Assembly (NCBI GenBank): GCA_964016885.1
Contig: OZ024764.1
Coordinates: forward strand, 19,220,001 to 19,284,000
Length of the DNA: 64,000 nucleotides
Direction of reading: 5' to 3'
Origin: Eledone cirrhosa
Taxonomy: Eukaryota
The notes under the pieces: model-generated
Seen by the model: only the letters and a program-made list of their open reading frames with translations
The model's database searches: none
What the model was told of the DNA's origin: nothing
Shown: piece after piece, positions 1,856 to 44,163 of the stretch
Numbering within the stretch: position 1 is the first letter of the stretch
Layout of the letters: each line of letters opens with the position of its first letter
Made by a program: the position numbers and the translations under genes

Positions 1856-2737
<882 letters not shown>

Positions 2738-18300: not shown

Positions 18301-18362
18301 AAGAAAATATATATTTGTGATGTGAAAAGTGAGCTTAAATCTACAATATTAATAGACATTAT

Positions 18363-18865: not shown

Positions 18866-19027
18866 CGGGTATGTCGGTAAGATAGGGTCATATGGGGGCT
18901 AAACCGCCAGAACAGCTAAGTACGCTGGCAGAGATCACCGGGTACTTCGGTAAGATCGGGTCATGTGGAGGCTAAACCGCCAGAACAGCTAAGTACCCTC
19001 ACAAGAGTCATCGGGTATCTCGGTAAA
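18866..19027. repeat. ~72-bp degenerate tandem repeat (also ~39515-39676; ~4 units at ~61885-62125)
   Basis: Unit gggtatctcggtaagatcgggtcatatggaggctaaaccgccagaacagctaagtaccctgacagagatcacc. Confidence 0.8.
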
Positions 19028-20386: not shown

Positions 20387-20464
20387 CTTGAGGTTGTGAG
20401 TTCGATTCCTGGACGAGGCGATGCGTTATGACCTTGAGCAAGACACTTTATTTCACGTTGTTCC
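20387..20464 (+). mobile_element. tRNA-derived SINE 5' fragment (missing in copy 2)
   Basis: B-box-like gagttcgattcc followed by ccttgagcaagacactttatttcacgttg. Confidence 0.6.
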
Positions 20465-20580
20465 TTCTACCTGGAGTTGCGACCGATAGTACTAGCAATT
20501 GGAAAGACCAATGGAAACATTGCTTCCTCGGTCCGATTTGACGAAAGTCGATCGTTCCTTCATATATATATATACACACA

Positions 20581-22470
20581 CTGTGGTACCTTGACTTAAG
20601 AATATAATTTGTTCCGTGGACGACCTCGTAACTTAAATTACTCGTATGTCAAATCAATTTTCCCCACTGAAATAAATTAAAATGCCATTAATCCGTTCCA
20701 GACCCCCCAAAAACCACAGTTTCTTTTGTTACGTGTTTTTAAATAAGAAAAATGTACTTATAAATAACAAATATTGTATATAAAAAACAATACAATAGAA
20801 TGTACTACAATAAACTAGTTTTATTAAGTATAATGTACAGCATCTATCTTGGAGATCAGACGACTTGAGGATGTTGACGGAGGAGAAAGGATGAACTGAA
20901 TAACTGAATCTTATTCGCTGATTTTTGCCCTTTTCGCCACGCGTTCCTCACTTTTATCTGCAGGGATTTTCAATAAAAACCTGTCTAATGAGATTTGTTT
21001 CATCTCACTTGTTGAGATAACCTCCTCTGTGTCACCTATTTCCTTCAAAAACTCCGTGTGTTGCTGTGTCTGTAGCTCCTTTAATTCCTTCGTTGTCATC
21101 TCCTCGGAGTGCTCCTCGATGAGCTCGTTGATGTCACCTTCATCCATGTCCAGGCCCATGGAGTTACCGAGGGGTACAATCTCCTCCACCACTGCCGCTT
21201 CGGGTTCGAGTCTTTCAAAGTCTGTTTTAGACACAACTTCAGGCCACAGCTTCTTCCATGTAGAGGTCAAGGTCCTCTTTGTAAGACCCTGCCAGGTCAT
21301 ATCGATAATTCTGAGGCATATCACGATGTTATAATGGTCCTTCCAGACCTCTCAAGGGTGAAGTTTGTGCTCTCCGTCACTTCAAAGCAGCGACTGAACA
21401 GGTGCTTGGTGAAGAGCTTCTTGAAATTAGAAAGTACCTGCTGGTCCTTGGGCTGTAGGATAGGGGTGGTGTTTGGTGGAAGGTAGAGGACCTTTATAAA
21501 CTTGAACTCTTCGAGGTTAGGTGGGTGAGCAGGTGTATTGTCCAGAACAAGAAGGGTTTACAGGGGTAGGTTATTTTCATGGGGATATTTTTTAATGTCA
21601 GGACCAAATTCACCCAATCCACAACGAACTGCCTGGTGACCCATGCCCTCGGGTTTGCCCTCTACATAGCCTGCAGTTTTTCTTTCAGAATCTTATGTGA
21701 CTTAAAGTTTTCCGAATGATAAACGAGCGGCAACTTAATCTTACAGTCAACGTTCACAGTGGCACAGTGCGAGGGTTAGCCTATCCTTCATGGGTTTGTG
21801 GCCAGGCATCCTCTTCTCCTCTGCCGTTATATAAGTCCTCCTTGGCATCTTCTTCCAAAAAAGTCCTGTTTCATCACAGTTAAAGACTTGCTGAGGGATG
21901 TATCCTTTGGCTGCTATAATTCAGGCAAAGGTTTTGAGGTAATCCTCAGCTGCCTTCATATCCGCGCTCGCTGCCTCACCATGCCTGACAACGGAGTGAA
22001 TCCCGGTCCTCTTTTTAAAATTCTCAAACCAACCCTGACTGGCATTAAAGGGCTTGCCGATGGCTCGTCCGTAGAAGTACTTGGGGTCTGCTGCAGCAAA
22101 TCAGCGTAAATAGTTCGTGCCTTCTCACATATAATCTTCATCACGGTATCTCTTGCGAGCTGCTTCTCCATATTTTCATGGATAGAGGTCCGCTGTTTAG
22201 AAATTATTTTACCACCCTTAGCTGGGGTTATAGCCTTTATCAAGTCCACTACACACACACCTTGGACATGTTTTTCTATAATTTCTTTCTTTAATTCAAT
22301 ACACATCATCTGCTTCTTCTTCTCAGCACTGTCCTTCGCCCTCACTTTCTTCGAACCCATGGGATGCTGGACGAGTGTTATGGTATTCCCTGTGGCGGTC
22401 GCTATGCCAACTAGAACTGGAACTCAACGCAAAAAATCAGCCGAGGGACGGCTCGTATCTCGAAAAACTC
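20581..22470 (-). mobile_element. Tigger/pogo-type DNA transposon, decayed
   Basis: CENP-B-type HTH start (IELKKEIIEKH), DDE_1-like pieces (PLVYHSEN, RANPRAWVT, WKKLWPE), terminus ctgtggtaccttgacttaag. Confidence 0.88.
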
Positions 22471-22594
22471 TTTATGTGTGTGTTTGTATGTGTGTTTATA
22501 TGTATATTATAAAATTATAATATAGAAAACAGCGATCTTCTGATTACTGAAGCTGGTGCATTAGATATTTCACTGCCAACACTGTAAAGAGGTT

Positions 22595-23606
22595 GTGTAG
22601 GTGTCATGACAAAAAGTACCCAGTCCACACTGTAAAGTGGTCATCTAGATGTCACAACAAAAAGTACCCAGTCCACACTGTAAAGTGGTCATGTAGGTGT
22701 CACAACAAAAAGTACCCAGTCCACACTGTAAAGTGGTCATATAGGTGTCACAACAAAAATTACCCAGTCCACCCTGTAAAGTGGTCATGTATGTGTCACA
22801 ACAAAAAGTACCCAGTTCACACTCTAAAGTGGTCATGTATGTGTCACAACAAAAAGTACCCAGTACACACTGTATAGTGGTCATGTAGGTGTCACAACAA
22901 AAAGTACTAAATCCACACTGTAAAGTGGTGATGTAGGTGTCACAACAAAAAGTACCCAGTCCACACTGTAAAGTGCTCATGTAGGTGTCACAACAAAAAG
23001 CACCCAGACCACACTGTAAAGTGGTCATGTATGGTTATATTATAAATGTATGTATATGTGTGTGTATGTATGTATGTGTCACGACAAAAAGTACCCAGTC
23101 CACACGGTAAAGTGGTCATGTAGGTGTCACGACAAAAAGTACCCAGTCCACACGGTAAAGTGGTCATGTAGGTGTCACAACAAAAAGTACCCAGTCCACA
23201 CGGTAAAGTGGTCATGTAGGTGTCACAACAAAAAGTACCCAGTCTACACGGTAAAGTGGTCATGTAGGTGTCACAACAAAAAGTACCCAGTCCACACGGT
23301 AAAGTGGTCACATTGGTGTCATGGCAAAAAGTACCCAGTCCACACTATAAAGTGGTCATGCAGGTGTTACGAAAAAAAGTGCCCAGTTCACCCTGTAAAG
23401 TGGTCATGTAGGTGTCACGACAAAAAGCACCCAGTACTCAATGTAAATAAGGTTGGTGCTAGGAAGGGCATCCAGCTGTAGAAACCAAACCAAAATTGGT
23501 TCTGTAGGAGCAACACGTGGTCACCTGACCTGGCATTGCTTACAACAGGATAACTCGTCTAACCCATGCCAGGGTGGAAAAACTGATGTTAAACAGTGAT
23601 GATGAT
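22595..23606 (+). repeat. 48-bp minisatellite expanded from an RTE 3' UTR, followed by the RTE tail
   Basis: Unit gtgtcacaacaaaaagtacccagtccacactgtaaagtggtcatgtag matches ~58455-58540 of an RTE 3' end; continues into ggttggtgctaggaagggcatccagctgtagaaa...gatgatgat. Confidence 0.88.
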
Positions 23607-24010
23607 ATAACATTTGTTTAATGATGAATTCCAATCTCCTTGTTAACAGCTATAGATGTCAGGATGTGAACCTTTTTACTGAAATATCTTCTCCATGTTA
23701 GTGGTTGAAGAAGATTTAGAAAACTTTCACACAATAACTGTATTCCCTAACTTCTCCCCTAAAAAATACAAGACGAGCAGGGCCAGACTTTTACCTACTG
23801 AAGCCCTAAGTTATATGAAGTTAGAGGTTATTTTCTAAAAATATATAATTATCTTTTATATTAATGTTAATTATAAAGAATAAATAATATAATAAATATA
23901 CCACCATAGGTGCTGAGGTGGCTAGCTGCTGGTGTGAACCTCACAAGATGGAATAGCTCTTCCAGCACATCTAGAACATGACCCTCTAATATCTAGTATT
24001 TAGTAACAAA

Positions 24011-24381
24011 CTAGACCACCCGGGACCTGTTGGGTCACGTTCCCTTAAAACTATTTTTTAAAAGTCATTTTAAAATAGTTTTTAAATAGTTAAAATATAC
24101 ACATACATATATATATATCTATACACATACGTTTATATATATATATATACACACACATATTTTATTAAACAACACCACCAGCTCCCTCTCTCTCACAACC
24201 ACTATCTCTTTCTCTCCCTATATTTATCAAGGTACCCAGAAAACCCCGTATCTTGGGAACCTGTGCTCCAATTTATACAAAACTTGTTTTATTCCTTTCA
24301 AAGTATTTCCCCATTATGCACCGTTTTAGCTGTATTAAATTACGGACAAGACACAATCACAGAGTTTTAGTAGTATATAGA
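24011..24381 (-). mobile_element. Non-autonomous Helitron-like element (second copy 44568-44936)
   Basis: On minus strand A|TCTATATACTACTAAAACTC at 5' end; subterminal hairpin gacc-caaca-ggtc then CTAG|T at 3' end; no TSD. Confidence 0.75.
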
Positions 24382-24509
24382 TAATATAGCTTCAAATTAA
24401 AGTTAGTAAACGACAGTTTGGAGAAATCTGTAACATTTATTAAACATTCTTCAAGTTTCTCAATTCTATACAACAATAGTTTGTTAGTTAAAGTGTTTAG
24501 TTAGATGTT

Positions 24510-24877
24510 CTACATATAAAGAAGAGAGAATACTTTACCACAAATATTACAGTGGTATAATGATGTTCCCATCTCTTCTGGAAAATATTCCTATGTTGAT
24601 GTAAATATTTCTATTGTTCATAATTTTATCAAATGTGATCTTTGTCAATATCCAAATATTTCGAAAACTCCTTTGTAAATATCCAAAGTTCAATCAGAAT
24701 GTAAAATCATCTTGTAAATATTCCAGACAGTGAAAAAGGAAAATGTTGTTATTTATCTCAATTCAGAAGAAATATTTCACCATAATTCACCACAGACTAA
24801 ACAAGTTTATATCACTTGAATGTAACATCTTTCTGTTGTCTTTAAAAGACTCTTTTCTGTCAAGGTCATGTGATATT
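24510..24877 (-). pseudogene. Relic half-finger ZNF exon, copy 2
   Basis: Near-identical to 107-468; [20 protein letters not shown] at 24572-24510. Confidence 0.75.
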
Positions 24878-25349
24878 CTGAAATAGTAGAGAAACATTAT
24901 TAAGATATTTAGAAAGTAGAGATACAACAGTGAAAACTTTACTACATCTCTATATTAATAGATATAAAACTTACATGGTGACACAAACACTGCAACACTA
25001 ACTTACAGGAAAACATCTAGTTACTTCAATCAGGTGAAGAGATAAACTAGATTGACTTCATTCTCATCAGAAAACAGGATAGACAGATGGTTGGGAATAT
25101 TAACTCCTTTACTGGAGAAGGACGTACCACTCAACATAGACTAGATACTAGGTGTAAGATCTAGAGGGACTGACAGATACAAGACTATCTGGAGATAGAA
25201 GGGTTGGAGAGTAAAAGATCTCCCTGTTAAATATAAGATCTACAGGGACTGTGAGAGGTACAAGACAACCTAGAGAAAAGGGTAGGGACAGTAAAACATC
25301 TCCCTGTTTAATATAAAATCTAGAGGGACTGTGAGAGAGGTACAAGACA

Positions 25350-26418
25350 TCATCATCATCATCGTTTAACGTCCATGTTCCATGCTTGCATGGGTTTGGA
25401 CGGGAGTTTTCCCACTTGAGGCAAGAGTGGTTGTCTTGCTCGCATAGGACTGTCTGGCGGGTTTTCTACAGTTGGATGCCCTTCCTAACACCAACCGCAT
25501 TTACAGTGTGGGGCTGGGAGGTTTTTACCGTGTTGCCTACACGGCCACATTACAGCGTGGACTGTCTGGCTGGTTTTCTACAGCTGGATGCTCTTCCTAA
25601 CACCAACCACATTTACAGTGTGCGACTGGGAGGTTTTTACCGTGTTGCCTACACGGTCATATTACAGCGTGGACTGTGTTTTTTTTTGTCGTGAGACCTA
25701 CACGATCTCATTTGTTTCGGCCTGGATTTTGTGGCACCAACATAACTTTACATTGAAAGGGGCGGTGTGGATGGGGTGGGGGTGGTATATTTTGTTAGAG
25801 ATGCCTACTGACTGTAGTAGGTTTTACTTTGTATTTAGGTAAGGCGGGTCTTCTCTATTACTGAGTACCGCCAAAGCTCTCGGTCCAGTGACATTGTCTT
25901 GGAGAGGTGTAAGTGTGTGAGGTCGGAATTTATCAGCTCGTCCCAGGTTTTTCTGGGTCTGCCTACTCCGTGGCTACCGTCTATCTTTATTGCCCTGCAC
26001 TTTGCTATACAGCTGTCGTCTTTCATGCGCATCATGTGACCATACCAACGTAGCCTTCTCTCGAGTAAACAACATTCGCGTATATTACTATTACATATCC
26101 AGCGGAGCATGCAAGCTTCGTTCCTCTCTAGTCTGCGTATATCCTCTGCACACAATGCCCAGGTCTCACTGCCATGCAACATTGCTGTTCGTATGCAGGC
26201 ATCATACAACCTGCCTTTCATTTTTAGGGAGAACCCTTTTTCCATCCAGTTCTGACTCTAGCTACTGTACTTTCGGAGCACCCTCCCCCACTGCTGATTT
26301 TGTCACCCAGGTAACGGAAGCTGTCCACTATTTCTATAGAACCCTCTGCGCAGTTGAAAGAGCTAGTATTTTCTGGGCACTTGCTGCTACTTATTGCACC
26401 AGAGCACCGGCCACATGT
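25350..26418 (-). mobile_element. 5'-truncated RTE LINE inserted in the 82-bp minisatellite
   Basis: (GAT)n tail, GRLYDACIRTAMLHGSETW, RRLRWYGH, GRPRKTW; TSD aagaca; empty site in copy 1. Confidence 0.9.
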
Positions 26419-26818
26419 AAGACAACCTAAATAAAGGGTAGGGATAGTAAAAGATCTCCCTGTTAAATATAAAATCTAGAAGGACTGTGAGAGAGGTACA
26501 AGACAACCTAGAGAAAAGGGTAGGGATAGTAAAATATCTCCCTGTTAAATATAAGATCTAGAGGGACTGTGAGAGAGGTACAAGACAATCTAACAGAAGG
26601 GTAGGGACAGTAAAAGATCTCCCTGTTAAATATAAATTCAGAGATGTTCTACATGATACATATGATAAGGAGGAGGAGATTGATAGCTATGACATAGAAG
26701 ATATCTGAAAGTTTCTTTCAGACAGCCTGTTGTGAACCACTGATGAGATCTGTAGCTGATGTAAGCTGCCAGCCAGATGAATGTTGCCTTGGTGATGGAA
26801 TAGTACAGTAGATAGAAG

Positions 26819-27178
26819 CCGACCTTACCCAATTACACCTCTCAAAGGCAATGACACACGACCGTGACCTCTGGCGTCAAGCAGTAATACAGAGTACCCG
26901 ACCTCCCATGGGTACAAGCTGAAGCATATAGACAATATGCCCCCACCGCAAAAAAGCACCCAGTAAAGTGGACGTGTAGGCGCCACGAAAAAGCACCCAG
27001 CACTCACTGTAAATGAGGTTGGTGTTAGGAAGGACATCCAGCTGTAGAAATCAAGCCAAATCAGTTCCTGTATGAGCAAGGCATGGTCAGCCAACCAGAC
27101 ACTGCCCACAACAGGACAATCCGTCTAACCAATGCTAGCGTGGAAGAACGGACGTAAAACGGTGATGATGATGATGAT
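26819..27178 (+). mobile_element. Short RTE 3'-end insertion (copy-3 equivalent 47641-48009)
   Basis: (GAT)n tail, 8-bp TSD gatagaag, empty site at ~1378-1385. Confidence 0.88.
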
Positions 27179-27656
27179 GATAGAAGTTGAAATCTAAAAC
27201 ACCTGAAGAGAAAGGAGGAGAACAACAATATCAAATAGTTAAAATGGAAGCTAGATATTAGGCTTACAAATTATTGATTTCTGTTGTTATTGTTAAATTC
27301 TGTTTAATCTGTGATATGTGAGACAATGTACAGGACAATAGAATTAATATCAATGTCTGACTAGCAACAACAAAAGTTTTCATTTTATTGGCAGGTTTAA
27401 ATTACAGAAGTTCCCAAACCTTTACTAAAAATACAAATATATATCTTACCTGTTAAAGTATAATAAATCAAAGTTTAATGTGAAAAACTTCAATTTACAC
27501 AAAATCTTCAAACACTACTTCAAAAATGGAAACCTGGTGTTGATGATCCCTGTCATAGGTAAAACCTACAAGGTTAACCCCAGTTTTAGCAAGGATGATG
27601 GATCTACACAATTGTTGTTGTCGTAGTATGATGTAATGAGTTTGATATTGATACAG

Positions 27657-29189
27657 CTAAACTTCTGTATGAATACGCACATGCTTGGTTAAGTTACCAC
27701 TTTGAGAGAATGATTTACCACAGATGTCACAGTGATATGGCTTCTCTCTTGTATGAGTACGTTTGTGGGTAGCTAAGCTACTTCTGTCAGCGAATGATTT
27801 ACCACATATGTCACAATGATATGGATTCTCCCCTGTATGAGTACGTTTGTGGCTAGTTAAGCCACTTCTGTTAGTGAATGATTTACCACAGATGTCACAG
27901 TGATATGGCTTCTCTCCTGTATGAGTACGTTTGTGGGTAGCTAAGCTACTTCTGTCAGCGAATGATTTAACACAGATGTCACAATGATATGGCTTCTCCC
28001 CTGTATGAATACGTTTGTGAGTAGTTAAGGTTATACTGCGACTGAATGATTTACCACAGATGTCACAGTGATATGGCTTCTCTCCTGTATGAATACATTT
28101 GTGAGTAGTTAGGCCACTACTATGAGAGAAGGATTTATCACAGATGTCACAGTGATATAGGTTCTCCCCTGTATGAATACGTTTGTGAGTAGTTTTGGTA
28201 CTATTGTGACTGAATGATTTACCACAGATATCACAGTGATATGGCTTCTCTCCCGTATGAATACGTTTGTGAGTAGTTAGGTGACTAATATGAGAGAATG
28301 ATTTACCACAGATATCACACTGATATGGCTTCTCTCCTGTATGAATACGTTGGTGTGTAACAAAGCTACTTCTGTGAGAGAATGTTTTACCACAGATATC
28401 ACAGTGATATGGTTTCTCTCCTGTATGAATATGTTTGTGGCTAGTTAAGGTATTAATGAGACTGAATGATTTACCACAGATGTCACAGTGATATGGTTTC
28501 TCCCCTGTATGAACACGTTTGTGAGTAGTTAAGGTACTACTGCGACTGAATGATTTACCACAGATGTCACAGTGATATGTCTTCTCTCCTGTATGAATAT
28601 ATTTGTGAGTAGTTAGGCCACTACTCTGAGAGAAGGATTTACCACAGATGTCACAGTGGTATGGCTTCTCTCCTGTATGAATATGTTTGTGAGTAGTTAA
28701 GGTACTACTTTGCCTGAATGATTTACCACAGATGTCACAGTGGTATGGCTTCTCTCCTGTATGAATATGTTTGTGAGTAGTTAGGTGATTATTAATAGAG
28801 AATGTTTTACCACAGATATCACAGTGATATGGTTTCTCTCCTGTATGAATATGTTTGTGACAAGCTAAGCTACTACTTTGGCTGAATGATTTACCACAGA
28901 TATCACAGTGATATGGCTTCTCTCCTGTATGAATACGTTTGTGATTAGTTAAGCTATCTCTGCAAGAGAATGATTTACCACAGATGTCACAGTGATGTGG
29001 CTTCTCTCCTGTATGAATTTGTTTGTGAACTCTGACGCTACTACTGTGACTGAATGATTTGTTACAGATATCACACTTATAAGGCTTCTCTCCTGTATGA
29101 ATACATTTGTGAGTGGTTAGGTGATTACGAGAGAATGATTTACCACAGATATCACAGTGGAATGGTGATTTTACTATATTTTTCGACAT
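27657..29189 (-). CDS. C2H2 zinc finger protein, 18 tandem fingers
   Basis: 510-aa ORF with ATG and TGEKP linkers; same N-terminus ([10 protein letters not shown]) and C-terminus (RIHTEV) as 1856-2719; finger 1 is one residue short. Confidence 0.94.
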   Translation of the reverse strand: MSKNIVKSPFHCDICGKSFSRNHLTTHKCIHTGEKPYKCDICNKSFSHSSSVRVHKQIHTGEKPHHCDICGKSFSCRDSLTNHKRIHTGEKPYHCDICGKSFSQSSSLACHKHIHTGEKPYHCDICGKTFSINNHLTTHKHIHTGEKPYHCDICGKSFRQSSTLTTHKHIHTGEKPYHCDICGKSFSQSSGLTTHKYIHTGEKTYHCDICGKSFSRSSTLTTHKRVHTGEKPYHCDICGKSFSLINTLTSHKHIHTGEKPYHCDICGKTFSHRSSFVTHQRIHTGEKPYQCDICGKSFSHISHLTTHKRIHTGEKPYHCDICGKSFSHNSTKTTHKRIHTGENLYHCDICDKSFSHSSGLTTHKCIHTGEKPYHCDICGKSFSRSITLTTHKRIHTGEKPYHCDICVKSFADRSSLATHKRTHTGEKPYHCDICGKSFTNRSGLTSHKRTHTGENPYHCDICGKSFADRSSLATHKRTHTREKPYHCDICGKSFSQSGNLTKHVRIHTEV

Positions 29190-29987
29190 ATCTCCTACTA
29201 AAAGATATCAATCACCTCAGTTTCTCACATAATTCACAGTTTTAATATTTTTCTCCTGTCAATATATGAATATATGGATATTTTTCTTCTTTATGTTTAT
29301 AATATTATTCCTAAAACATATTCCTCCAGATATATTTACATCAACTTTGGTCTTTCTTTATATTTAAAGATGATACAAACTGTTTTGTAGATCTCTTCAA
29401 GTTTAATATACATATAAAATCATCTTGTACATATTCCAGACAGCAAAGAATAGAAGTGTTATTGAGTTTACAAGATATATTTCACAGTATTTCTCCCCTA
29501 GATTTATATAAACAAGGTTGTATCTGTTCTGTATAACAGCTTCCTTTAATCTTTAAATAATAGTGTTGATGAAACAACTGATATAAAAGTGTTTTATCCT
29601 TTTCATACCAGTCTTTATATTTATCTAAAAACTTTCCATTATAGCTTCATGAAATTGTGCTAAGTTATGTTCCAAATAGCAGCTTAATACTGAGAAATTT
29701 AGTTATATTACTAAATTCCTTCAAAGTGTTGAGTGTTTTCAAAATTATTTGAAAACGATGGGTAGTGTCTTTCATTAGAAATGGTTAATGTTGAGGATAT
29801 GTCTGATGTAACGTGCTCTTTAATGCCAATGTCCTCTGGTATTCTGAAATAATAAAAGAACATTATAAGATACTGAGAAACTTGTAATACATCAGTACAA
29901 ATTTCATATAATATTTCTATATTGATAAATGGACTGTAATAAATACTAAGGCCTTCTTTGGTGAAGAATGTGCTGACTAACATAGGT

Positions 29988-32900
29988 TAGTTATTAGTGG
30001 TAGTAGATTATACTGACTGATAAAAGTAGTTATTAGTGGCAGTAGATTAAACTGACTGATAAAAGTAGTTATTAGTGACATTAGATTAAACTGACTGATA
30101 AAAGTATTTATTAGTGACATTAGATTAAACTGACTGATAAAAGTAGTTATTAGTGACATTAGATTAAACTGACTGATAAAAGTAGTTATTAGTGACATTA
30201 GATTAAACTGACTGATAAAAGTAGTTATTAGTGACATTAGATTAAACTGAAAGATAAAAGTAGTTATTAGTGACTTTAGATTAAACTGACTGATAAAAGT
30301 AGTTATTAGTGACATTAGATTAAACTGACTGATAAAAGTAGTTATTAGTGACATTAGATTAAACTGACTGATAAAAGTAGTTATTAGTGACATTAGATTA
30401 AACTGACTGATAAAAGTAGTTATTAGTGACATTAGATTAAACTGAAAGATAAAAGTAGTTATTAGTGACATTAGATTAAACTGACTGATAAAAGTAGTTA
30501 TTAGTGACATTAGATTAAACTGAAAGATAAAAGTAGTTATTAGTGACATTAGATTATACTGACAGATAAAAGTAGTTATTAGTGACATTAGATTAAACTG
30601 AAAGATAAAAGTAGTTATTAGTGACATTAGATTAAACTGACTGATAAAAGTAGTTATTAGTAACATTAGATTAAACTGACTGATAAAAGTAGTTATTAGT
30701 GACATTAGATTAAACTGACTGATAAAAGTAGTTATTAGTGACATTAGATTATACTGACTGATAAAAGTAGTTATTAGTGACATTAGATTAAACTGAAAGA
30801 TAAAAGTAGTTATTAGTGACATTAGATTAAACTGACTGATAAAAGTAGTTATTAGTGACATTAGATTATACTGACTGATAAAAGTAGTTATTAGTGACAT
30901 TAGATTAAACTGAAAGATAAAAGTAGTTATTAGTGACATTAGATTAAACTGACTGATAAAAGTAGTTATTAGTGACATTAGATTAAACTGACTGATAAAA
31001 GTAGTTATTAGTGACATTAGATTAAACTGAAAGATAAAAGTAGTTATTAGTGACTTTAGATTAAACTGACAGATAAAAGTAGTTATTAGTGACATTAGAT
31101 TAAACTGACTGATAAAAGTAGTTATTAGTGACATTAGATTATACTGACTGATAAAAGTAGTTATTAGTGACATGAGATTAAACTGACTGATAAAAGTAGT
31201 TATTAGTGACATTAGATTAAACTGACTGATAAAAGTAGTTATTAGTGACATTAGATTATACTGACAGATAAAAGTAGTTATTAGTGACATTAGATTAAAC
31301 TGACTGATAAAAGTAGTTATTAGTGACATTAGATTAAACTGACTGATAAAAGTAGTTATTAGTGACATTAGATTAAACTGACTGATAAAAGTAGTTATTA
31401 GTGACATTAGATTATACTGACTGATAAAAGTAGTTATTAGTGACATTAGATTATACTGACAGATAAAAGTAGTTATTAGTGACATTAGATTAAACTGACT
31501 GATAAAAGTAGTTATTAGTGACATTAGATTAAACTGACTGATAAAAGTAGTTATTAGTGACATTAGATTAAACTGACTGATAAAAGTAGTTATTAGTGAC
31601 ATTAGATTATACTGACTGATAAAAGTAGTTATTAGTGACATGAGATTAAACTGACTGATAAAAGTAGTTATTAGTGACATTAGATTAAACTGACTGATAA
31701 AAGTAGTTATTAGTGACATTAGATTATACTGACAGATAAAAGTAGTTATTAGTGACATTAGATTAAACTGACTGATAAAAGTAGTTATTAGTGACATTAG
31801 ATTAAACTGACTGATAAAAGTAGTTATTAGTGACATTAGATTAAACTGACTGATAAAAGTAGTTATTAGTGACATTAGATTATACTGACTGATAAAAGTA
31901 GTTATTAGTGACATTAGATTATACTGACAGATAAAAGTAGTTATTAGTGACATTAGATTAAACTGACTGATAAAAGTAGTTATTAGTGACATTAGATTAA
32001 ACTGACTGATAAAAGTAGTTATTAGTGACATTAGATTAAACTGACTGATAAAAGTAGTTATTAGTGACATTAGATTATACTGACTGATAAAAGTAGTTAT
32101 TAGTGACATTAGATTAAACTGACTGATAAAAGTAGTTATTAGTGACATTAGATTAAACTGAAAGATAAAAGTAGTTATTAGTGACTTTACATTAAACTGA
32201 CTGATAAAAGTAGTTATTAGTGACATTAGATTAAACTGACTGATAAAAGTAGTTATTAGTGACATTAGATTAAACTGACTGATAAAAGTAGTTATTAGTG
32301 ACATTAGATTAAACTGACTGATAAAAGTAGTTATTAGTGACTTTAGATTAAACTGACTGATAAAAGTAGTTATTAGTGACATTAGATTAAACTGACTGAT
32401 AAAAGTAGTTATTAGTGACATTAGATTAAACTGACTGATAAAAGTAGTTATTAGTGACATTAGATTATACTGACTGATAAAAGTAGTTATTAGTGACATT
32501 AGATTAAACTGACTGATAAAAGTAGTTATTAGTGACATTAGATTAAACTGAAAGATAAAAGTAGTTATTAGTGACTTTAGATTAAACTGACTGATAAAAG
32601 TAGTTATTAGTGACATTAGATTAAACTGACTGATAAAAGTAGTTATTAGTGACATTAGATTAAACTGAAAGATAAAAGTAGTTATTAGTGACTTTAGATT
32701 AAACTGACAGATAAAAGTAGTTATTAGTGACATTAGATTAAACTGACTGATAAAAGTAGTTATTAGTGACATTAGATTAAACTGACTGATAAAAGTAGTT
32801 ATTAGTGACATTAGATTATACTGACTGATAAAAGTAGTTATTAGTGACATTAGATTAAACTGACTGATAAAAGTAGTTATTAGTGACATTAGATTAAACT

Positions 32901-34691
32901 GACTGATAAAAGTAGTTATTAGTGACATTAGATTAGACTGACTGATAAAAGTAGTTATTAGTGACATTAGATTAAACTGACTTATAAAAGTAGTTATTAG
33001 TGACATTAGATTATACTGACTGATAAAAGTAGTTATTAGTGACATTAGATTATACTGACTGATAAAAGTAGTTATTAGTGACATTAGATTAAACTGACTG
33101 ATAAAAGTAGTTATTAGTGACATTAGATTAAACTGACTGATAAAAGTAGTTATTAGTGACATTAGATTATACTGACTGATAAAAGTAGTTATTAGTGACA
33201 TTAGATTAAACTGACTGATAAAAGTAGTTATTAGTGACATTAGATTAAACTGACTGATAAAAGTAGTTATTAGTGACATTAGATTATACTGACTGATAAA
33301 AGTAGTTATTAGTGACATTAGATTAAACTGACTGATAAAAGTAGTTATTAGTGACATTAGATTAAACTGAAAGATAAAAGTAGTTATTAGTGACTTTAGA
33401 TTAAACTGACTGATAAAAGTAGTTATTAGTGACATTAGATTAAACTGACTGATAAAAGTAGTTATTAGTGACATTAGATTAAACTGACTGATAAAAGTAG
33501 TTATTAGTGACATTAGATTATACTGACTGATAAAAGTAGTTATTAGTGACATTAGATTAAACTGACTGATAAAAGTAGTTATTAGTGACATTAGATTAAA
33601 CTGACTGATAAAAGTAGTTATTAGTAACATTAGATTAAACTGACTGATAAAAGTAGTTATTAGTGACATTAGATTAAACTGACTGATAAAAGTAGTTATT
33701 AGTGACATTAGATTATACTGACTGATAAAAGTAGTTATTAGTGACATTAGATTATACTGACAGATAAAAGTAGTTATTAGTGACATTAGATTAAACTGAC
33801 TGATAAAAGTAGTTATTAGTGACATTAGATTAAACAGACTGATAAAAGTAGTTATTAGTGACATTAGATTATACTGACTGATAAAAGTAGTTATTAGTGA
33901 CATTAGATTATACTGACAGATAAAAGTAGTTATTAGTGACATTAGATTAAACTGACTGATAAAAGTAGTTATTAGTGACATTAGATTATACTGACTGATA
34001 AAAGTAGTTATTAGTGACATTAGATTATACTGACTGATAAAAGTAGTTATTAGTGACATTAGATTATACTGACTGATAAAAGTAGTTACTAGTGACGTTA
34101 GATTATACTGACAGATAAAAGTAGTTACTAGTGACATTAGATTAAACTGACTGATAAAAGTAGTCATTAGTGGCATTAGATTAAACTGACTGATAAAAGT
34201 AGTTATTAGTGACATTAGATTAAACTGACTGATAAAAGTAGTTATTAGTGACATTAGATTATACTGACTGATAAAAGTAGTTATTAGTGGCAGTAGATTA
34301 AACTGACTGATAAAAGTAGTTATTAGTGAGATTAGATTAAACTGACTGATAAAAGTAGTTATTAGTGACATTAGATTATACTGACTGATAAAAGTAGTTA
34401 TTAGTGACATTAGATTAAACTGACTGATAAAGGTAGTTAATAGTGACATTAGATTATACTGACTGATAAAAGTAGTTATTAGTGGCAGTAGATTAAACTG
34501 ACTGATAAAAGTAGTTATTAGTGACATTAGATTAAACTGACTGATAAAAGTAGTTATTAGTGACATTAGATTAAACTGACTGATAAAAGTAGTCTTTAGT
34601 GGCATTAGATTAAACTGACTGATAAAAGTAGTTATTAGTGACAGTAGATTATACTGACTGATAAAAGTAGTTATTAGTGACATTAGATTAA
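29988..34691. repeat. 39-bp minisatellite, ~120 units
   Basis: Same unit; array-specific variant ctgaaagat. Confidence 0.99.
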
Positions 34692-34826
34692 CCCTTTAGT
34701 ATTCACATTACTCTATATTTACTATTATATTTTCACAGTAAATGCTTTATCTCACATAATATCAAATCTATGAGATTTTGATGTTATTTATTTTGAGAAC
34801 AATACCTTAACATAAGTATAAGTGAA

Positions 34827-36536
34827 AAGTTCTAAGAATATACTTAGCCAAAACTACAGTGCTAATGGATAGGAGAGAAGACCCTGACCCCTTCAGGAAA
34901 GTGGCCCTGCTCCATATGTAGAAAAGGAATAAGTAGAGATAACCACAATGACAGAGACCTAGTTATAATAGCAGGGGACTTCAATGGTCATGTTGGACAG
35001 CTCCAGGATGGATATACTGGGGTACATGGTGGTCATGGTTATGGCTCAAGAAATGAAGAAGGAGTGAGGCTTCTTGTATTTTGTGATGCAAGTGAACTAA
35101 CCATTTGCAACACTTCAAGAAACCTACCAACCACCTAATAACCTACCAATCAGGTGAGCACATGAGACAGATTGACTTCTTGCTAGTTAGGGAGTAAGAC
35201 AGATAGATGGTGTCAAATACTAAGGCATACCCCAGGGTACAATGTACCCCACCAACATAGGTTAGTCGTTAGTGACATCTCAGTAAGCAAGAGACAAAGA
35301 GAGACATACAAGAAGGTTTGAAAAAGGAAGGTCTGGAAACTAAAAGACCTTTCACTAAAATATAAATTTAGGAAAGCCCTTCAAGATGTGTATGACGAAA
35401 AAGAAGACGATTTAGAGTCATATGACATGGATGATAACTGGAATTTCTTACGTTACAACTTACTGCAGGTTACTGAAGAAACTTGTGGCTGGAGCAGAGC
35501 TCCAACCAGACAGAGGGTGACCTGGTGGCGGAACAGTACGGTAGATAGAGCCATTAGAGACAAAAGGCTTGGAAAAATGGTAGGGGTAGAGTCCGATACA
35601 CAGCCGCTAAGAGAGAAGCTAGATGTCAGGTCTACTTAACATGCAGGGAGGCTGAGAGTAGAAGGTTTGCCAATGTCCTGCGATGGGGAGATCAGAAATG
35701 TGCGGTGTTCCACATTGCAAGGCAGTGTGTCAGTGTAAATCCCGATGTTTGTGCACTTAGTGTCACTGATTCTCAAAAAAAAAGGGGGCCTGGAAATGTC
35801 ATTATGAAAGATTGATGAATGTGGAGAATGAAAGGGAGAGAAACTACCTTCAGTAGACCTGACAGAGGGACCAGCTATTGAGATTGACGACTATAGGGTC
35901 CAAGAGGCAATTAAGGAAATGAAAAATGGTAAGTCCGCTAGACCGTTGGGGATAGTTGCTGAGATGCTGAAGGCATCAAGACAAGTAGGAATTAAACTGG
36001 TTGCACGCATCATTAATCAAGCTATATATGGTGGTGTCATACAGAAGAGTTTTAAGACTGGCTGCCCATGGGAACTTCTCTATGCTGACGATCTGGTTCT
36101 TATAGCAGAATCAGTAGAGGAGCTAGAGAATAAATTCCGGCTATTGCAACAGCAGTTGGAATCAAGAGGACTGAGAGTGAACCTAGCTAAGACTAAAGTG
36201 TTGATGAGTAGAAAAGAGGACAAAACTCTGATTCCATCAGGGAAATGGCCATGCTCCATATGTAGAAAAGGAGTTGGCATAAATTCTATAGAAGGTACAC
36301 AATGCAGATCTTGGGTACACAAGAGATGTAGTGGGATAGCACGCAAACTAACAGGTAGGGAAAACTACATATGCAGTAGATGTACAGGGGAATTTGAGAG
36401 TAGAAGTTGCAGTGATAGACACATTTTTCAAATGCAGATGGGTTCTACAGAGGTGGTTGATTGCTTCCGATACCTAGGTGATCAGATTAGCAAGGAGGAG
36501 GGTGCTGTGAGGCCATAAGATCTAGAGTAAGGACGA
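34827..36536 (+). mobile_element. Decayed RTE-clade LINE, copy 2 (same deletions as copy 1)
   Basis: ORF 35919-36518 with YADD and CSIC..C..C..WVHKRC. Confidence 0.92.
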
Positions 36537-36728
36537 GTTGTCCTTACCAACAGGCCTCTAATTATAAAGGTTATCATTGACCAACACTAACACCCCCCCA
36601 GGGTGGACTGAACCAAGCCTAACACCCCCCAGGGTGGACTGAACCAACACGAATACCCCCCAGGGTGGACTGAACCAACACTAATACCCCCCAGGGTGGA
36701 CTGAAATAACTGTATTACCCTATCATGA

Positions 36729-37174
36729 TACTATAACATTATAAACCTAAAACTCTGTGATTGTGTCTTGTCTGTAATGTAATACAGCCAAAACGGGGCA
36801 TAATGGGGAAATAGTTTGAAAGGAATTTGACCCTGAAATGGGAATACAGATGGGATAAAATAAGTTTCATGTAAATCAGAGCATAGGTTCCCGAGATATG
36901 GGGTTTGTTTCTGGTACCTTCATAAATAGAGAGAGAGAGAGAGCTGGTGGTGTTGTTGAACGAAATTTTAAAATTATAACAAGCGACTTGTGTGTGTGTG
37001 TCTGTGACATATATATACACACACACATATATATATACACACACGCATATATATATATATACATGGGCCTACCTACTAATTTCATTTTAGATTATATACA
37101 TGTCTGTGTATATTTTAATTATTTAAATATTATTTTTAAAGGGAAAGTGACCCAACAGGTCACAGGGTTTCTAG
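36729..37174 (+). mobile_element. Non-autonomous Helitron-like element, same family (copy-3 equivalent ~57968-59821 carries nested insertions)
   Basis: Reverse-complement homology to 24011-24381; gtgacc-caaca-ggtcac hairpin then CTAG|T. Confidence 0.72.
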
Positions 37175-37239
37175 TAAGATTATAAATACAAACACACAAA
37201 AAGATAGAATCTACTCAAACGTTAATATCTCAGACCTCA

Positions 37240-37385
37240 TTAGATTACTGGAACTTTAATTTATCCACCCTGTTAGAATGAAAGACAAAGTTAACTTTGG
37301 TGGGATTTGAACTCATAACATAAAGGGTTGAAATCCCGCCGAGGTTAGCTTTGCCCTTCATCTTTACGGGGTTGATTTAAGATCT
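37240..37385. mobile_element. Two adjacent inverted SINE-like fragments (also ~59890-60030)
   Basis: aatgaaagacaaagttaactttggtgggatttgaa followed by its approximate reverse complement; homologous to 61255-61431. Confidence 0.6.
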
Positions 37386-38251
37386 TATAATAGTTTCTGA
37401 TTTAGACACAAGGTCGACAATGTTTGGGGGGAATAAGTTGATTAAATCAAACACAATTACTGTGAGATCACTTCTTTGATAGTTTGTTTAAAAATAACTG
37501 ATTCACAATTTACGTATGAAAAGTTGACAAAGATTTACAAGTGGTGTTATCAATAAATAGGGCCTTCAAAGTAGCAGGAAACGACTAGATTTTTGAAGTG
37601 GGAGACAGGATTATCAGAGTTAAGAAGAGCTACACACTTCTCCTGTTGGCTGGGAAATAATTATCTTTCCTTAATTTTATTTCTCAACCTCTTAGATGTT
37701 TGCAATCGACTTTTCTTCCTGAAAACGGAAACCCTAACCCTAATACTGGGGAATAAAACGTCTATTGCAAGTATATAAGGGGTTCAGAGAAAATATTGAA
37801 AAGGGGTCTAGAAAAAAATCTAAGAAAAATAATTATTTCCCACCCAACGTGAGGTGTGAGTAGATCTATGAAACTACATCTCTTTGTATACTTTCACCCT
37901 ACTTTTTCTACAAATCTAGTCGTTTCCGTGAGGGTATCTGGTTATTTAAGCACCTGAGCCTCACGATACTGAGGTGTCAGGTGATACCCGTGAGGGTACC
38001 TGGTTATTTCAGCACCTTAGCCTCACCTTACTGAGGTGTCAGGTGATACCCGTGAGGGTACCTGGTTATTTAAGCACCTTAGCCTCACCTTACTGAGGTG
38101 TTAGGTGACACCCGTGAGGGTACCTGGTTATTTCAGCACCTTAGCCTCACCATCACCAGTGTGTTGGCTTGCCTCAATGTAGTTAACCCCTAAGGTGTGA
38201 GGTAAAATATAGATAATTACCATAACATTTTATATTTCCAGTAATGAAACA

Positions 38252-38951
38252 CCATATCAATTGCTCCAATGCAGTTTATCATCTCGCCAAACTTGTTGGC
38301 ACCAACTCTCTGTCGCCAAAGACTGCAATATAAGATTGAAATAAAGCAGCTCTGGTACCATGTTGGCTCTCGTCGATCTCGACAATGATGGACTCACCAT
38401 TGTCATCGAAGCCTCCAAGTTGTTGGCGATTTTCCTCCAAATATTGCTGGCAAATTTCTCGAATAAAATTGCACCAGTCAATAATTGTCGGTTGGGAGAC
38501 TCCCGTTTCTCGAATCATCTCAGCTTGTGTATAATTGTAGCACCACATGTATAAAATAAAAATAAGGTGGTCGCGTGGCACATGGCTTCCTTGAAAAAAA
38601 CAATTATGTCGAACTGCTTGGGAGACATTGTCGGGGTTACATCGCCATCTCCATTTCTTGTGAGTCTCAGAATAATGGTTTAATGTACAGGTTTCATTAC
38701 AAACAGGACAATTGACACTGTCACTGCCGTCTTACCAGCCACTGTAACATAGATTGTCACCGTGTATGACAGGTATAAGAGTAACAAGTGTAATATTCTC
38801 ATTAACGATGTCATTTACATCCAAAACATCAACTAACGTAGTGCCAGCCCGTAGTCGTCCAACCAGTTTTTGTATTCAGATAAACAATAGTTTTTAATGA
38901 ATCGAAAATGAAAATAAATTTCATTTCTGACGTGAGACTTAAGGTTGAGCG
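38252..38951 (-). mobile_element. Merlin/IS1595-like transposase fragment, copy 2
   Basis: Near-identical to 17601-18300. Confidence 0.8.
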
Positions 38952-39013
38952 AAGAAAATATATATTTGTGATGTGAAAAGTGAGCTTAAATCTACAATAT
39001 TAATAGACATAAT

Positions 39014-39145
39014 ACTTACATTATAGTTTCAGGTGTTTAGTATTTACAGAAATGTTTTCTAAATGATGTTGTAGGAAGACTAACACGTGGACAGGAAGTC
39101 GACAACTGCACCACTGCGCATGCTTCAATTTTTTTTTGTGACGTA
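39014..39145 (-). promoter_or_regulatory. Predicted promoter/exon 1 of ZNF copy 2
   Basis: Same motif cluster; donor at 39019. Confidence 0.55.
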
Positions 39146-41172
39146 AAAATATTTTTACCGAATTAAATTATGTAAAGTTTGTAATAAAAAGTGAAGTTGA
39201 AAACAGTAAATGTAATTAAAATAGAGAAAGTAAGGTGTTGGTGGTGAGGAATGGACGGTAGACGTTTTACCTCAGTCTAGGTAGTGTATTTTACCTGTGT
39301 CACTCGGACAATAGCCAGCGATGACCACTACACCAACCACTCTCTCCTTCAGATGGTGTCCACTTTCGTGAGTCTGTAGAATAACAGGGCAGTTGGAAGA
39401 CAGAGGACAGCAGAGGAGGTCTTGACTTGAAAAGAGTATCACTTGATACCTCTATATAACTTGTTGGTAGAAATAGTAGGGTGCTGGATCAATCGAGTAC
39501 CCTGACATAGATCCCCGGGTATGTCGGTAAGATAGGGTCATATGGGGGCTAAACCGCCAGAACAGCTAAGTACGCTGACAGAGATCACCGGGTACTTCGG
39601 TAAGATCGGGTCATGTGGAGGCTAAACCGCCAGAACAGCTAAGTACCCTCACAAGAGTCATCGGGTACTACGGTAAAGCCAGCCGCCAACAGTGATAACA
39701 ACTTTGTTGTCAGCAGCCCAGCTTCTCAAATATCACAGACTGGAATAAATACTTTGCCGATAATTACTGGTAGTTTAGCTTTTATTTCGTTCGTCTACAG
39801 AAGCAGTGACCCTCACTTGTACTACAGCATGTAGGATGTGGGAGGGAGACAAAAACATCACTAACTGGGGTCTCACAAATGTGACAGTTAGTTTTGAAAA
39901 TATATATACAACATACAAGATAAATGACTAGACTGAAATATATTTGATAGGGAATAAAGAGTAGAATATTCTAGTCTGTGGTGTTGGAGAAGTTTGGAGG
40001 AGATAGGTCCCTGACAACGATGTTCTTGTTATCGTTGGCAGCTCTTCTTACCGAGGTGTCAGATGATACATATGAGGGTGTTTGGTAGTTCCAACATCTT
40101 AGCCTTGCTATCACTCGAGGTAAGACTGTCTCAGAAAGTATTAGAGGGAGACTCCGGCACCCCATGTGATGTGAGACTGATTGACAGAGTGTTGACTTAA
40201 TATTTTCATTTGTTGTGATTCTATGTGAAATATGTCTCTATGTAAGTAACTTGGTTACGTGAATCATTGTGAATCTCGTAAATACTTAAACAGAAATCTA
40301 CTTAGGACACAAAATAAAGCAGATTCCATTGTACAAAGTATCTAAAGGACGTATATCAAAAAGAAGGGGGCGATGTAACGAGAGTTGTCTCCCCTAAGAT
40401 ATGTTTTATGTTTTACAGAAGTAGGGGTTGAGATGTGTTTGTCTGTCTCTCTCTCGGTATAAACTACCATTTGCACTGCCTCTGTTTTTTGTTCCTATCT
40501 AATATTTAACTATATATATATATCCATCCCTCCAAAAATGATCAATTTAATTCTCTTTAACTCACTACATTCCACGACATGAAGTCTGCTATCAAAACTG
40601 ACCAAAGAATCCTGCCACCTCTACCCCTCCCTCCATCTCAGTTTGTCACTCTACTTCCTACCTCTTCCTCCTTCCTCTCTCTCTATACTATTCCGTCTGT
40701 CCCCTCACCTTCTGATTCCTCTCTCTCTATACTAGTAAATACAATTCCAAATAAATGTTTTTCTCTATATATTAAGAATTATTTCAAGAGTAACTTACTA
40801 TTTTGAAAATTTGGACTGTGAACAACAATTATAATTGAGTGGCTGCTATTTGCAGGATAGAAATATAAGGTTGCACTTACCAATGAAACGGTCGTAAATA
40901 CCTGGATAAAATCCTTCTCTTAATGCTTACCTGTGTTTTCTCTTTTATACTATATATACATATATACATATATATAATGGAATACTGTTGGCTTTTTGCT
41001 ACAATAATTTCTATATTCTTCATTTATATATGTTATATATTTATATATGTTGTTCCTTCTACCTGGAGTTGCGACCGATAGTACTAGCAATTGGAAAGAC
41101 CAATGGAAACATTGCTTCCTCGGTCCGATTTGACGAAAGTCGATCGTTCCTTCATATATATATATACACACA

Positions 41173-43058
41173 CTGTGGTACCTTGACTTAAGAATATAAT
41201 TTGTTCCGTGGAGGACCTCGTAACTTACATTACTCGTATGTCACATCAATTTTCCCCACTGAAATAAATTAAAATGCCATTAATCCGTTCCAGACCCCCA
41301 AAAACCACAATTTGTTTTGTTACGTGTTTTTAAATAAGAAAAATGTACTTATAAATAACAAATATTGTATATGAAAAACAATACAATAGAATGTACTACA
41401 ATAAACTGGTTTTATTAAGTATAATGTACAGCATCTATCTTGGAGATCAGACGACTTGAGGATGTTGACGGAGGAGAAAGGATGAACTGAATAACTGAAT
41501 CTTATTCGCTGATTTTTGCCCCTTTTCGCCACGCTTTCCTCACTTTTATCTGCAGGGATTTTCGATAAAAACCTGTCTAATGAGGTTTGTTTCATCTCAC
41601 CTATTTCCTGCAAAAACTCCGTGTGTTGCTGTGTCTGTAGCTCCTTTAATTCCTTCGTTGTCATCTCCTCGGAGTGCTCCTCGATGAGCTCGTTGATGTC
41701 ACCTTCATCCATGTCCAGGCCCATGGAGTTACCGAGGGGTACAATCTCCTCCACCACTGCCGCTTCGGGTTCCAGTCTTTCAAAGTCTGTTTCAGACACA
41801 ACTTCAGGCCACAGCTTCTTCCATGTAGAGGTCAAGGTCCTCTTTGTAAGACCCTGCCATGTCATATCGATAATTCTGAGGCATATCACGATGTTATAAT
41901 GGTCCTTCCAGACCTCTCAAGGGTGAAGTTTGTGCTCTCCGTCACTTCAAAGCAGCGACTGAACAGGTGCTTGGTGAAGAGCTTCTTGAAATTAGAAAGT
42001 ACCTGCTGGTCCTTGGGCTGTAGGATAGGGGTGGTGTTTGGTGGAAGGTAGAGGACCTTTATAAACTTGAACTCTTCGAGGTTAGGTGGGTGAGCAGGTG
42101 TATTGTCCAGAACAAGAAGGGTTTACAGGGGTAGGTTATTTTCATGGGGATATTTTTTAATGTCAGGACCAAATTCACCCAATCCACAACGAACTGCCTG
42201 GTGACCCATGCCCTCGGGTTAGCCCTCCACATAACCTGCAGTTTTTCTTTCAGAATCTTATGTGACTTAAAGTTTTCCGAATGATAAACGAGTGGCAACT
42301 TAATCTTACAGTCAACGTTCACAGTGGCACAGTGCGAGGGTTAGCCTATCCTTCATGGGTTTGTGGCCAGGCATCCTCTTCTCCTCTGCCGTTATATAAG
42401 TCCTCCTTGGCATCTTCTTCCAAAAAAGTCCTGTTTCATCACAGTTAAAGACTTGCTGAGGGATGTATCCTTTGGCTGCTATAATTCAGGCAAAGGTTTT
42501 GAGGTAATCCTCAGCTGCCTTCATATCCGCGCTCGCTGCCTCACCATGCCTGACAACGGAGTGAATGCCGGTCCTCTTTTTAAAATTCTCAAACCAACCC
42601 TGACTGGCATTAAAGGGCTTGCCAATGGCTCGTCCATAGAAGTACTTGGGGTCTGCTGCAGCAAATCAGCATAAATAGTTCGTGCCTTCTCACATATTAT
42701 AATCTTCATCACGGTATCTCTTGCAAGCTGCTTCTCCATATTTTCATGGATAGAGGTCCGCTGTTTAGAAATTATTTTACCACCCTTAGCTGGGGTTATA
42801 GCCTTTATCAAGTCCACTACACACACACCTTGGACATGTTTTTCTATAATTTCTTTCTTTAATTCAATACATATCATCTGCTTCTTCTTCTCAGCACTGT
42901 CCTTCGCCCTCACTTTCTTCGAACCCATGGGATGCTGGACAGGTGTTATGGTATTCCCTGTAGCGGTCGCTATGCCAACTAGAACTGGAACTCAACGCAA
43001 AAAATCAGCCGAGGGATGGCTCGTATCTCGAAAAACTCTTTACTTGGGACACTCGTAT
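41173..43058 (-). mobile_element. Tigger/pogo-type DNA transposon, copy 2
   Basis: Near-identical to 20581-22470. Confidence 0.88.
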
Positions 43059-43200
43059 ATATATATACTGTATATATATATGTGTGTGTTTGTATGTGTG
43101 TTTATATGTATATTATAAAATTATAATATAGAAAACAGCGATCTTCTGATTACTGAAGCTGGTGCATTAGATATTTCACTGCCAACACTGTAAAGAGGTT

Positions 43201-44163
43201 GTGTAGGTGTCATGACAAAAAGTACCCAGTCCACACTGTAAAGTGGTCATGTAGGTGTCACAACAAAAAGTACCCAGTCCACACTGTAAAGTGGTCATCT
43301 AGATGTCACAACAAAAAGTACCCAGTCAACACTGTAAAGTGGTCTGTAGGTGTCACAACAAAAAGTACCCAGTACACACTGTACAGTGGTCATGTAGGTG
43401 TCACAACAAAAAGCACCCAGACCACACTGTAAAGTGGTCATGTATGGTTATATTATAAATGTATGTATATGTGTGTGTATGTATGTATGTGTCACGACAA
43501 AAAGTACCCAGTCCACACGGTAAAATGGTCATGTAGGTGTCACGACAAAAAGTACCCAGACCACACTATAAAGTGGTCATGCAGGTGTTACGACAAAAAG
43601 TGCCCAGTCCACACTGTAAAGTGGTCATGTAGGTGTCACAACAAAAAGCACCCAGACCACACTGTAAAGTGGTCATGTAGGTGTCACAACAAAAAGCACC
43701 CAGTCCACACTGTAAAGTGGTCATGTAGGTGTCGCGACAAAAAGCACCCAGTACTCAATGTAAAGTGGTCATCATGGTGAGATGGTAAAAAGCACCCAGC
43801 CTACACTGTAAAGTGGTGGTGCTGGTGAGATGTTAAAAAGCACCCAGTCCACACTGTAAAGTAGTGGTGCTGGTGAGATGTTAAAAAGCACCCAGTCCAC
43901 ACTGTAAAGTGGTCATGTAGGTGTCACAACAAAAAGTACCCAGTCCACACTGTAAAGTGGTCATATAGGTGTCACGACAAAAAGCACCCAGTACTTAATG
44001 TAAATAAGGTTGGTTCTAGGAAGGTCATCCAGCTGTAGAAACCAAACCAAAATTGGTTCTGTAGGAGCAAGACGAGATCACCTGACCTGGCATTGCTTAC
44101 AACAGGATAACTCGTCTAACCCATGCCAGCGTGGAAAAAATGATGTAAAACAGTGATGATGAT
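43201..44163 (+). repeat. 48-bp minisatellite plus RTE tail, copy 2
   Basis: Same unit with different copy numbers on each side of the (TA/TG) interruption. Confidence 0.88.

Follow-up and report, generated by a model that had tools for sequence, protein, structure and literature searches.

A chimeric middle unit in a zinc-finger gene cluster of Eledone cirrhosa, with its ancestry switch inside a 39-bp minisatellite array

Known hybrid genes and the Eledone locus

Textbook cases of hybrid genes made by unequal crossover between tandem paralogs are hemoglobin (Hb) Lepore and anti-Lepore, the L/M opsin genes, and CYP11B1/B2. The CYP21A1P/A2 chimera is a further reported hybrid. In this study, a stretch of 64,000 nucleotides from Eledone cirrhosa (GenBank assembly GCA_964016885.1, contig OZ024764.1, positions 19,220,001 to 19,284,000 of the forward strand; hereafter, the window) was analyzed, in which three C2H2 zinc-finger (ZNF) paralogs lie in direct orientation in the order A, hybrid, B. 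The middle copy is a chimera in this sequence, and its switch of ancestry lies inside an array of 39-bp tandem units. The order is that of an anti-Lepore-type duplication product. However, the textbook hybrids are recent or segregating and have known phenotypes, whereas the divergence of 1.4% and the array turnover at the present locus point to an older one.

Tandem arrays have been connected with ZNF clusters before. In 1998, Eichler et al. reportedly linked beta-satellite arrays to the expansion of the human 19p12 ZNF cluster. There as well, the units of a young C2H2 cluster each come with a tandem-repeat array, but the beta-satellite blocks are said to lie between KRAB genes, and no single crossover is known to have been mapped in them; at the present locus, the unit is 39 bp long, its predicted position is intronic, and the array holds the switch. 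In 2015, Albertin et al. are said to have associated octopus C2H2 clusters with a 70-90-bp tandem repeat. In likeness to this, 73-bp and 82-bp arrays adjoin each gene in the window. The octopus report was reportedly an association without breakpoint mapping, whereas the array that carries the switch here has a 39-bp unit. The octopus C2H2 family is very large, with about 1,800 and 2,289 genes (PMC6279123), and the genes are described as clustered and tandemly duplicated (PMC9795677). In addition, the growth of ZNF families has been treated in relation to transposons (PMC10547256).

The closest well-characterized system is the KIR cluster, where unequal crossover produced hybrid genes with switched promoters, such as KIR2DL1/2DS1, KIR2DL3/2DP1, and KIR2DL5A/3DP1 (PMC2816608). 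The likeness to the present locus lies in tandem paralogs with conserved introns, unequal recombination, the union of one parent's promoter with the other's coding part, and a change of copy number (PMC2816608). For KIR, the breakpoints were narrowed to short intervals (93 bp, in an Alu), and transcription of a hybrid was confirmed (PMC2816608), whereas the interval here spans a 4.7-kb minisatellite, the promoter is a prediction, and the hybrid is seen at the DNA level. Among the literature listings searched, which leave subscription papers including the 2015 octopus genome largely outside their coverage, no breakpoint mapped to a minisatellite in a cephalopod ZNF cluster was found.

The ancestry switch in the middle unit

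The window contains three directly repeated units, and from left to right the order is left flank, array A1, spacer S1, array A2, spacer S2, array A3, and right flank. Each comprises a minus-strand C2H2 open reading frame (ORF) and an array of the 39-bp unit, which lies 0.8-1 kb upstream of the ORF. The features are as follows.

1856..2719, minus strand: ORF of gene 1, with 10 fingers in an order unlike that of genes 2 and 3 (ORF and finger analysis)
27657..29189, minus strand: ORF of gene 2, with 18 fingers and an ATG at 29189 (ORF and finger analysis)
48482..49849, minus strand: ORF of gene 3, with 16 fingers (ORF and finger analysis)
3682..15087: array A1, about 293 units (tandem-repeat analysis)
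29988..34691: array A2, about 121 copies of the 39-bp unit (tandem-repeat analysis)
50820..54587: array A3, about 97 units (tandem-repeat analysis)
15088..29987: spacer S1, with the predicted promoter of gene 1 and then the finger exon of gene 2 (alignment against S2)
34692..50819: spacer S2, sister of S1, with the predicted promoter of gene 2 and then the finger exon of gene 3 (alignment against S1)
29958..34779: main ancestry-switch interval, of which 4.70 of 4.82 kb is array (three-way alignments and split test)

Sites at which one copy differs from the other two were counted on both sides of A2. In the left three-way alignment (3442 columns), copy 1 was odd at 174 sites, and copies 2 and 3 were odd at 27 sites each, with 5 sites at which all three differed. 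The last copy-1-odd site was 29957, in agreement with the first-pass annotation of this DNA, in which copies 2 and 3 were held to share single-nucleotide differences up to about 29958. The copy-1-odd sites lay mostly within the finger exon and the 82-bp array. When tandem repeats were excluded (2155 columns), there were 36 of them vs 18 and 10 for the other classes, and the 802 columns adjoining the array held 21 vs 7 and 6. On the right side (3677 columns), the counts were 144 copy-3-odd, 31 copy-2-odd, 24 copy-1-odd, and 2 all-different sites, taken from BLAST-homologous blocks only and away from gaps; a raw right-side count of 738 was dropped, because it was inflated by misaligned non-homologous columns. 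The first copy-3-odd sites were 34681 and 34684, in the last array unit, and the next was 34780.

With array columns and near-gap columns excluded, the best single split of the 356 informative sites fell between 29957 and 34780 (chi2 = 183.7; 0 of 10,000 permutations), separating 162 copy-1-odd and 26 copy-3-odd sites on the left from 24 and 144 on the right. The diagnostic-site and recombination analysis proposed in the first-pass annotation thus placed the switch at the array. The change of parent occurs at homologous positions and leaves no junction scar. Furthermore, comparison of the fingers confirmed that genes 2 and 3 have a common finger order.

Insertions and deletions on the two sides provided a second line of evidence.

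25349..26422, minus strand: RTE-like insertion with a target duplication, in copies 2 and 3 (copy 3, about 46000-47166) and absent from copy 1
26811..27178, plus strand: second RTE-like insertion with a target duplication, in copies 2 and 3 (copy 3, 47633-48009) and absent from copy 1
34688..34826: miniature inverted-repeat transposable element (MITE) with TTAA ends, abutting the array, truncated in copy 2 and in copy 1 (15084-15222) and whole in copy 3 (54584-54798)
36042..36538, plus strand: two RTE-internal deletions, 449 bp at 36042 and 622 bp at 36537, common to copies 1 and 2
38243..38950, minus strand: Merlin/IS1595-type transposase fragment, in copies 1 and 2 and probably deleted in copy 3

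Both left insertions, which had been noted at 25350 and 26819 as present in copies 2 and 3 and not in copy 1, have a GAT-repeat tail and short target duplications. On the right, the MITE is truncated by a 293-bp loss common to copies 1 and 2, for which copy 3 is ancestral. Copy 3 keeps the longer ancestral state at all three right-side deletions (293, 449, and 622 bp), and the truncated MITE and the two RTE deletions previously listed as common to copies 1 and 2 are thereby polarized as derived losses. With copy 2 tied to copy 3 by two derived insertions and to copy 1 by three derived deletions, no single tree fits both sides. The A, B-left/A-right, B pattern with its switch in the array, as first described, was upheld by the diagnostic sites, the split test, and these derived marks. 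The Merlin segment had been counted among the marks of copies 1 and 2. The Merlin label is supported by one match among 174 candidates, a PF12762 protein with 67% identity, but the segment looks deleted in copy 3 and hence is not a shared derived mark. The Tigger piece was unusable as a three-way mark because the copy-3 homology stops at 62853 (40424 in copy 2), short of it, and a search of its protein gave no Pfam name.

Origin of the middle unit

S1 and S2 could be aligned end to end, from array to array. They differ by 158 substitutions in 11,090 non-tandem columns (1.42%), and also by insertions or deletions (indels) measuring 1043 bp, 172 bp, and two fingers. The pattern is that of a tandemly duplicated segment, made up of a single spacer and a single array, whose ends both fall in arrays. 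The sister distances are similar on either side (1.0% right of the arrays and 1.4% left), which is what one event predicts. The parent-like copies 1 and 3 are further apart, differing by 4.7% to the right of the arrays and, outside tandem repeats, by 2.7% to the left.

Unequal crossover is the simplest cause of this pattern, and we infer that such a crossover occurred and added a gene. The hybrid middle gene was probably made by unequal crossover in the arrays of neighboring paralogs, with duplication of a 15-16-kb spacer and an array. Two neighboring paralogs would have mispaired and crossed over inside their arrays; one 15-16-kb spacer would thereby have been duplicated along with an array, and the predicted promoter of gene 1 would have been joined to a finger exon of the gene 3 type. 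In the middle unit, the finger exon is sister to gene 3, and the 5 kb across the 39-bp array are sister to gene 1. Afterwards, the arrays would have turned over, as no long block of unit variants is shared. Later, copy 1 would have lost 1043 bp, copy 2 would have lost 172 bp, and the finger number would have shifted by two, while gene conversion between copies 1 and 3 likely exchanged a short tract beyond the 73-bp array. The hybrid itself most likely arose by a known mechanism, ordinary unequal crossover.

Several observations weigh against this account. A single clean switch over the whole unit was not found, since a second switch occurs at the 73-bp array.

39496..40424 (copy 1, 18846-19770; copy 3, 61868-62853): second ancestry switch, formed by the 73-bp array (39496-39676) and the tract beyond it

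From 34692 to 39495 (2383 columns), there were 99 copy-3-odd, 9 copy-2-odd, and 12 copy-1-odd sites, and from 39677 to 40424 (704 columns), there were 4, 13, and 6, respectively (Fisher 5.6e-9; 0 of 10,000 permutations). This switch lies about 0.4 kb upstream of the predicted promoter, and beyond the 73-bp array copies 1 and 3 are the closest pair (1.4% vs 2.4-2.7%). The statement that copy 2 matches copy 1 right of the array accordingly holds for the main tract with its 99 copy-3-odd sites and fails at 39677-40424, where copy 2 is the odd one. Switching of sites outside the array had been named in the first-pass annotation as evidence against its reading; it does occur, and the main switch stands. 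In the three-way view, the copy-1-type tract is limited to about 5 kb beside the array, and the main switch is unaffected. Judged from the site pattern, the tract at the second switch is likely a short later gene conversion between copies 1 and 3. It ends in a purine run followed by TG, which we take to resemble the start of a long terminal repeat. Moreover, the differences between S1 and S2 are spread unevenly (chi2 p = 1.6e-4), and together with the second switch this indicates a history of more than one event. The longest identical runs between copies 1 and 3 are 233 and 317 columns in the flanks vs 158 bp in the arrays, so that the array gives no longer perfect homology today, and the unit variants place no junction inside A2 (split test, 1766 of 10,000 permutations). 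Finally, the S1/S2 divergence of 1.0-1.4% is near octopod heterozygosity, for which PMC9795677 gives 0.95-1.10% in three species and 0.08% in a fourth.

The nearness to heterozygosity would fit an assembly artefact, in which the animal has two genes, the spacers S1 and S2 represent alleles of a single spacer, and the assembler linked two haplotypes through the array. Such a misjoin predicts exactly the same site pattern. It is also compatible with the changes between genes 2 and 3 (28 nonsynonymous and 9 synonymous; ratio of nonsynonymous to synonymous rates, dN/dS, 0.82; p = 0.54 against neutrality), which fit alleles or young copies. However, the sequence has no gap (zero N across the window), and the 505 whole units of the arrays contain only two 3-bp deletions as indels; this near-absence of array indels and the lack of N suggest that accurate long reads lie behind the assembly. 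A2 is just 4.7 kb long and shows a higher-order repeat of its own. Its private variants extend from unit 6 to unit 93 of 119, and over these units it was therefore not freshly spliced from two arrays. In addition, the arrays share at most 158-215 bp exactly, which would be too little for a join by exact overlap, and the two alleles would need length differences of 1043 bp, 172 bp, and two fingers. Sequencing runs with part of the locus exist (23 listed, the best four with 0.37-0.46 of its sequence words) and were counted as evidence for neither side. A misjoin is considered unlikely.

A history in two steps is quite improbable as well. In this case, an A-B block would have become A-B-A-B, and a deletion from a B array to the next A array would have followed, so that the array event removes a gene. 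It yields the same A, B/A, B order and a single divergence level for S1 and S2, and the ends of the larger block would fall beyond the window; it needs two events where one is enough, and no trace of a fourth unit was seen within the window. Because the product is the same, the gain of a gene per array event is not established by the pattern. The least probable explanation is that three genes existed beforehand and that one or more long conversion tracts ending in the arrays copied one 15-16-kb spacer onto the other with the gene number unchanged: the short exchanged tract at 39677-40424, the uneven divergence, and the interlocus conversion described as frequent among paralogs of the young NPIP family (PMC12790995) agree with it, but the tract would have to cover 15 kb and carry five shared indels, and neither S1 nor S2 retains a remnant of an older spacer type.

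Arrays, predicted promoters, and cluster growth

Unequal crossover thus remains the preferred explanation, and the role of the array in it was considered further. The first-pass annotation had treated the array as a special site. Its pattern, the switch in the array, and unequal crossover as the simplest cause were retained, but the arrays make up 36-63% of the visible three-way alignable sequence. One crossover in the array is accordingly expected from its length, and a single event does not speak for a hotspot. Copies 1 and 3 have 3893 exact 100-mer pairs in the arrays, compared with 253 and 230 in the flanks. The arrays offer kilobases at about 95% identity in many registers, while the parent flanks are broken into blocks by insertions and deletions. 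The array is likely the largest stretch of about 95% homology between the parents, with a hotspot role unproven.

The overall composition of A2 is closer to A3, and its longest exact matches are 215 bp to A1 and 183 bp to A3. A variant at unit position 29 was found in 0 of 291 A1 units, 11 of 119 A2 units (units 6-86), and 7 of 95 A3 units, hinting at a junction near the promoter-side end of A2; against this, variants in common with A1 are interspersed, and the split test was not significant. Mapping of the junction by unit variants was rejected as a means of narrowing the interval, as no shared block was longer than 5 units. A1 contains large higher-order repeats, in which blocks of 12-20 units recur and one 3-bp deletion has been duplicated, and these recurring blocks indicate active turnover inside the array. 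Both array ends are alike in all three copies. The MITE sits at the TTAA of an array unit and fixes the promoter-side end of every array; from its TTAA ends, it is presumably piggyBac-like.

Read on the minus strand, the 39-bp unit has CTAAT followed by a T-rich run and CAG, which we take, by eye, to resemble a branch point and splice acceptor in every unit. Open frames on the gene strand run through the arrays at 3671-15091, 29977-34695, and 50809-54417 (minus strand; 3806, 1572, and 856 + 345 codons, respectively). The array was rejected as a coding exon and the frames were ascribed to chance: a stop ends the frame before the finger exon, and A3 contains a stop. Such long frames persist because just 3 of the 117 single changes of the unit make a stop (48 distinct variants were observed), and the sole indel keeps the frame.

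The promoter side of gene 2 was modeled as follows.

39020..39145, minus strand: predicted promoter and non-coding exon 1 of gene 2 (motifs; GT donor at 39019)
29190..29843, minus strand: leader from a predicted splice acceptor (29844) to the finger ORF (splice use predicted)

The cluster of motifs at 39085-39145, followed by the GT donor at 39019, is kept in all three copies, and its motifs are, as we read them, CRE-, NRF1-, ETS-, and E-box-like. On the basis of these motifs, the cluster is predicted to be the promoter and the array to be intronic. The leader, 654 bases long if the acceptor at 29844 is used, has stops in every frame and 10 upstream ATGs, and a second candidate acceptor lies about 10 bases before the ATG of gene 2. 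The core promoter motifs are identical in the three copies, in a block where copy 3 is 3.4% divergent; a swap of the predicted promoters may therefore change little. A 182-bp insertion (61250-61431), which by eye is like a short interspersed nuclear element, is present in the predicted exon 1 of gene 3 only.

All three finger ORFs remain open, and their tandem C2H2 fingers, joined by TGEKP-type linkers, were named by Pfam. Single defects are visible in each. Finger 1 of gene 2 is one codon short. In gene 3, GTG at 49849 stands in place of the ATG kept in genes 1 and 2, and fingers 14 and 15 (within 48482-48700) are without zinc-binding histidines. In the last finger of gene 1, Q replaces H. 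Genes 2 and 3 may be diverging near-neutrally and decaying. The style of the fingers and the repeats are octopod-like. Among the best 120 of 7999 matches, the protein search with the fingers gave mostly vertebrate ZNFs at 37-61% identity and none from octopus, and it was uninformative on the taxon. Pfam gave no name for 4 of the 6 proteins searched, and named the RTE piece (RVT_1) and the fingers.

Each unit also has a second, decayed zinc-finger exon relic (44990-45682 on the minus strand, about 24430-25110, and 30-720). Its homology with the main gene's leader rests on 422 of 579 aligned bases, with a score of 318 vs a maximum of 246.5 in 200 base shuffles. The 82-bp tandem array lies directly upstream of the relic, the position that the 39-bp array has in the main gene. 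At the far-left end (copy 1, 1-758), the distances among the three copies are roughly equal, and a candidate switch at the 82-bp array was not accepted (6/7/3 sites in 733 columns; 4550 of 10,000 permutations; rate test p = 0.02).

A more general possibility, which is rather doubtful at present, is that gene-linked tandem arrays are recurrent joints of the zinc-finger cluster, so that an intronic recombination cassette in each gene would pair promoters with new finger arrays. It draws on two events, the switches at the 39-bp and 73-bp arrays, and on the decayed paralog, before whose exon an 82-bp array occupies the corresponding position. If true, it would explain the growth of cephalopod C2H2 clusters and the short satellites that travel along with them. 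A mechanism acting across the cluster is not demonstrable from this window alone. From a young zinc-finger cluster of an invertebrate, the locus provides one clear worked example in which unequal crossover is the probable cause and the breakpoint lies within a minisatellite. If breakpoints proved to be enriched in arrays throughout the cluster, the long-standing association of satellites with zinc-finger clusters would become a mechanism, through which expression pattern and DNA-binding specificity would be reassorted.

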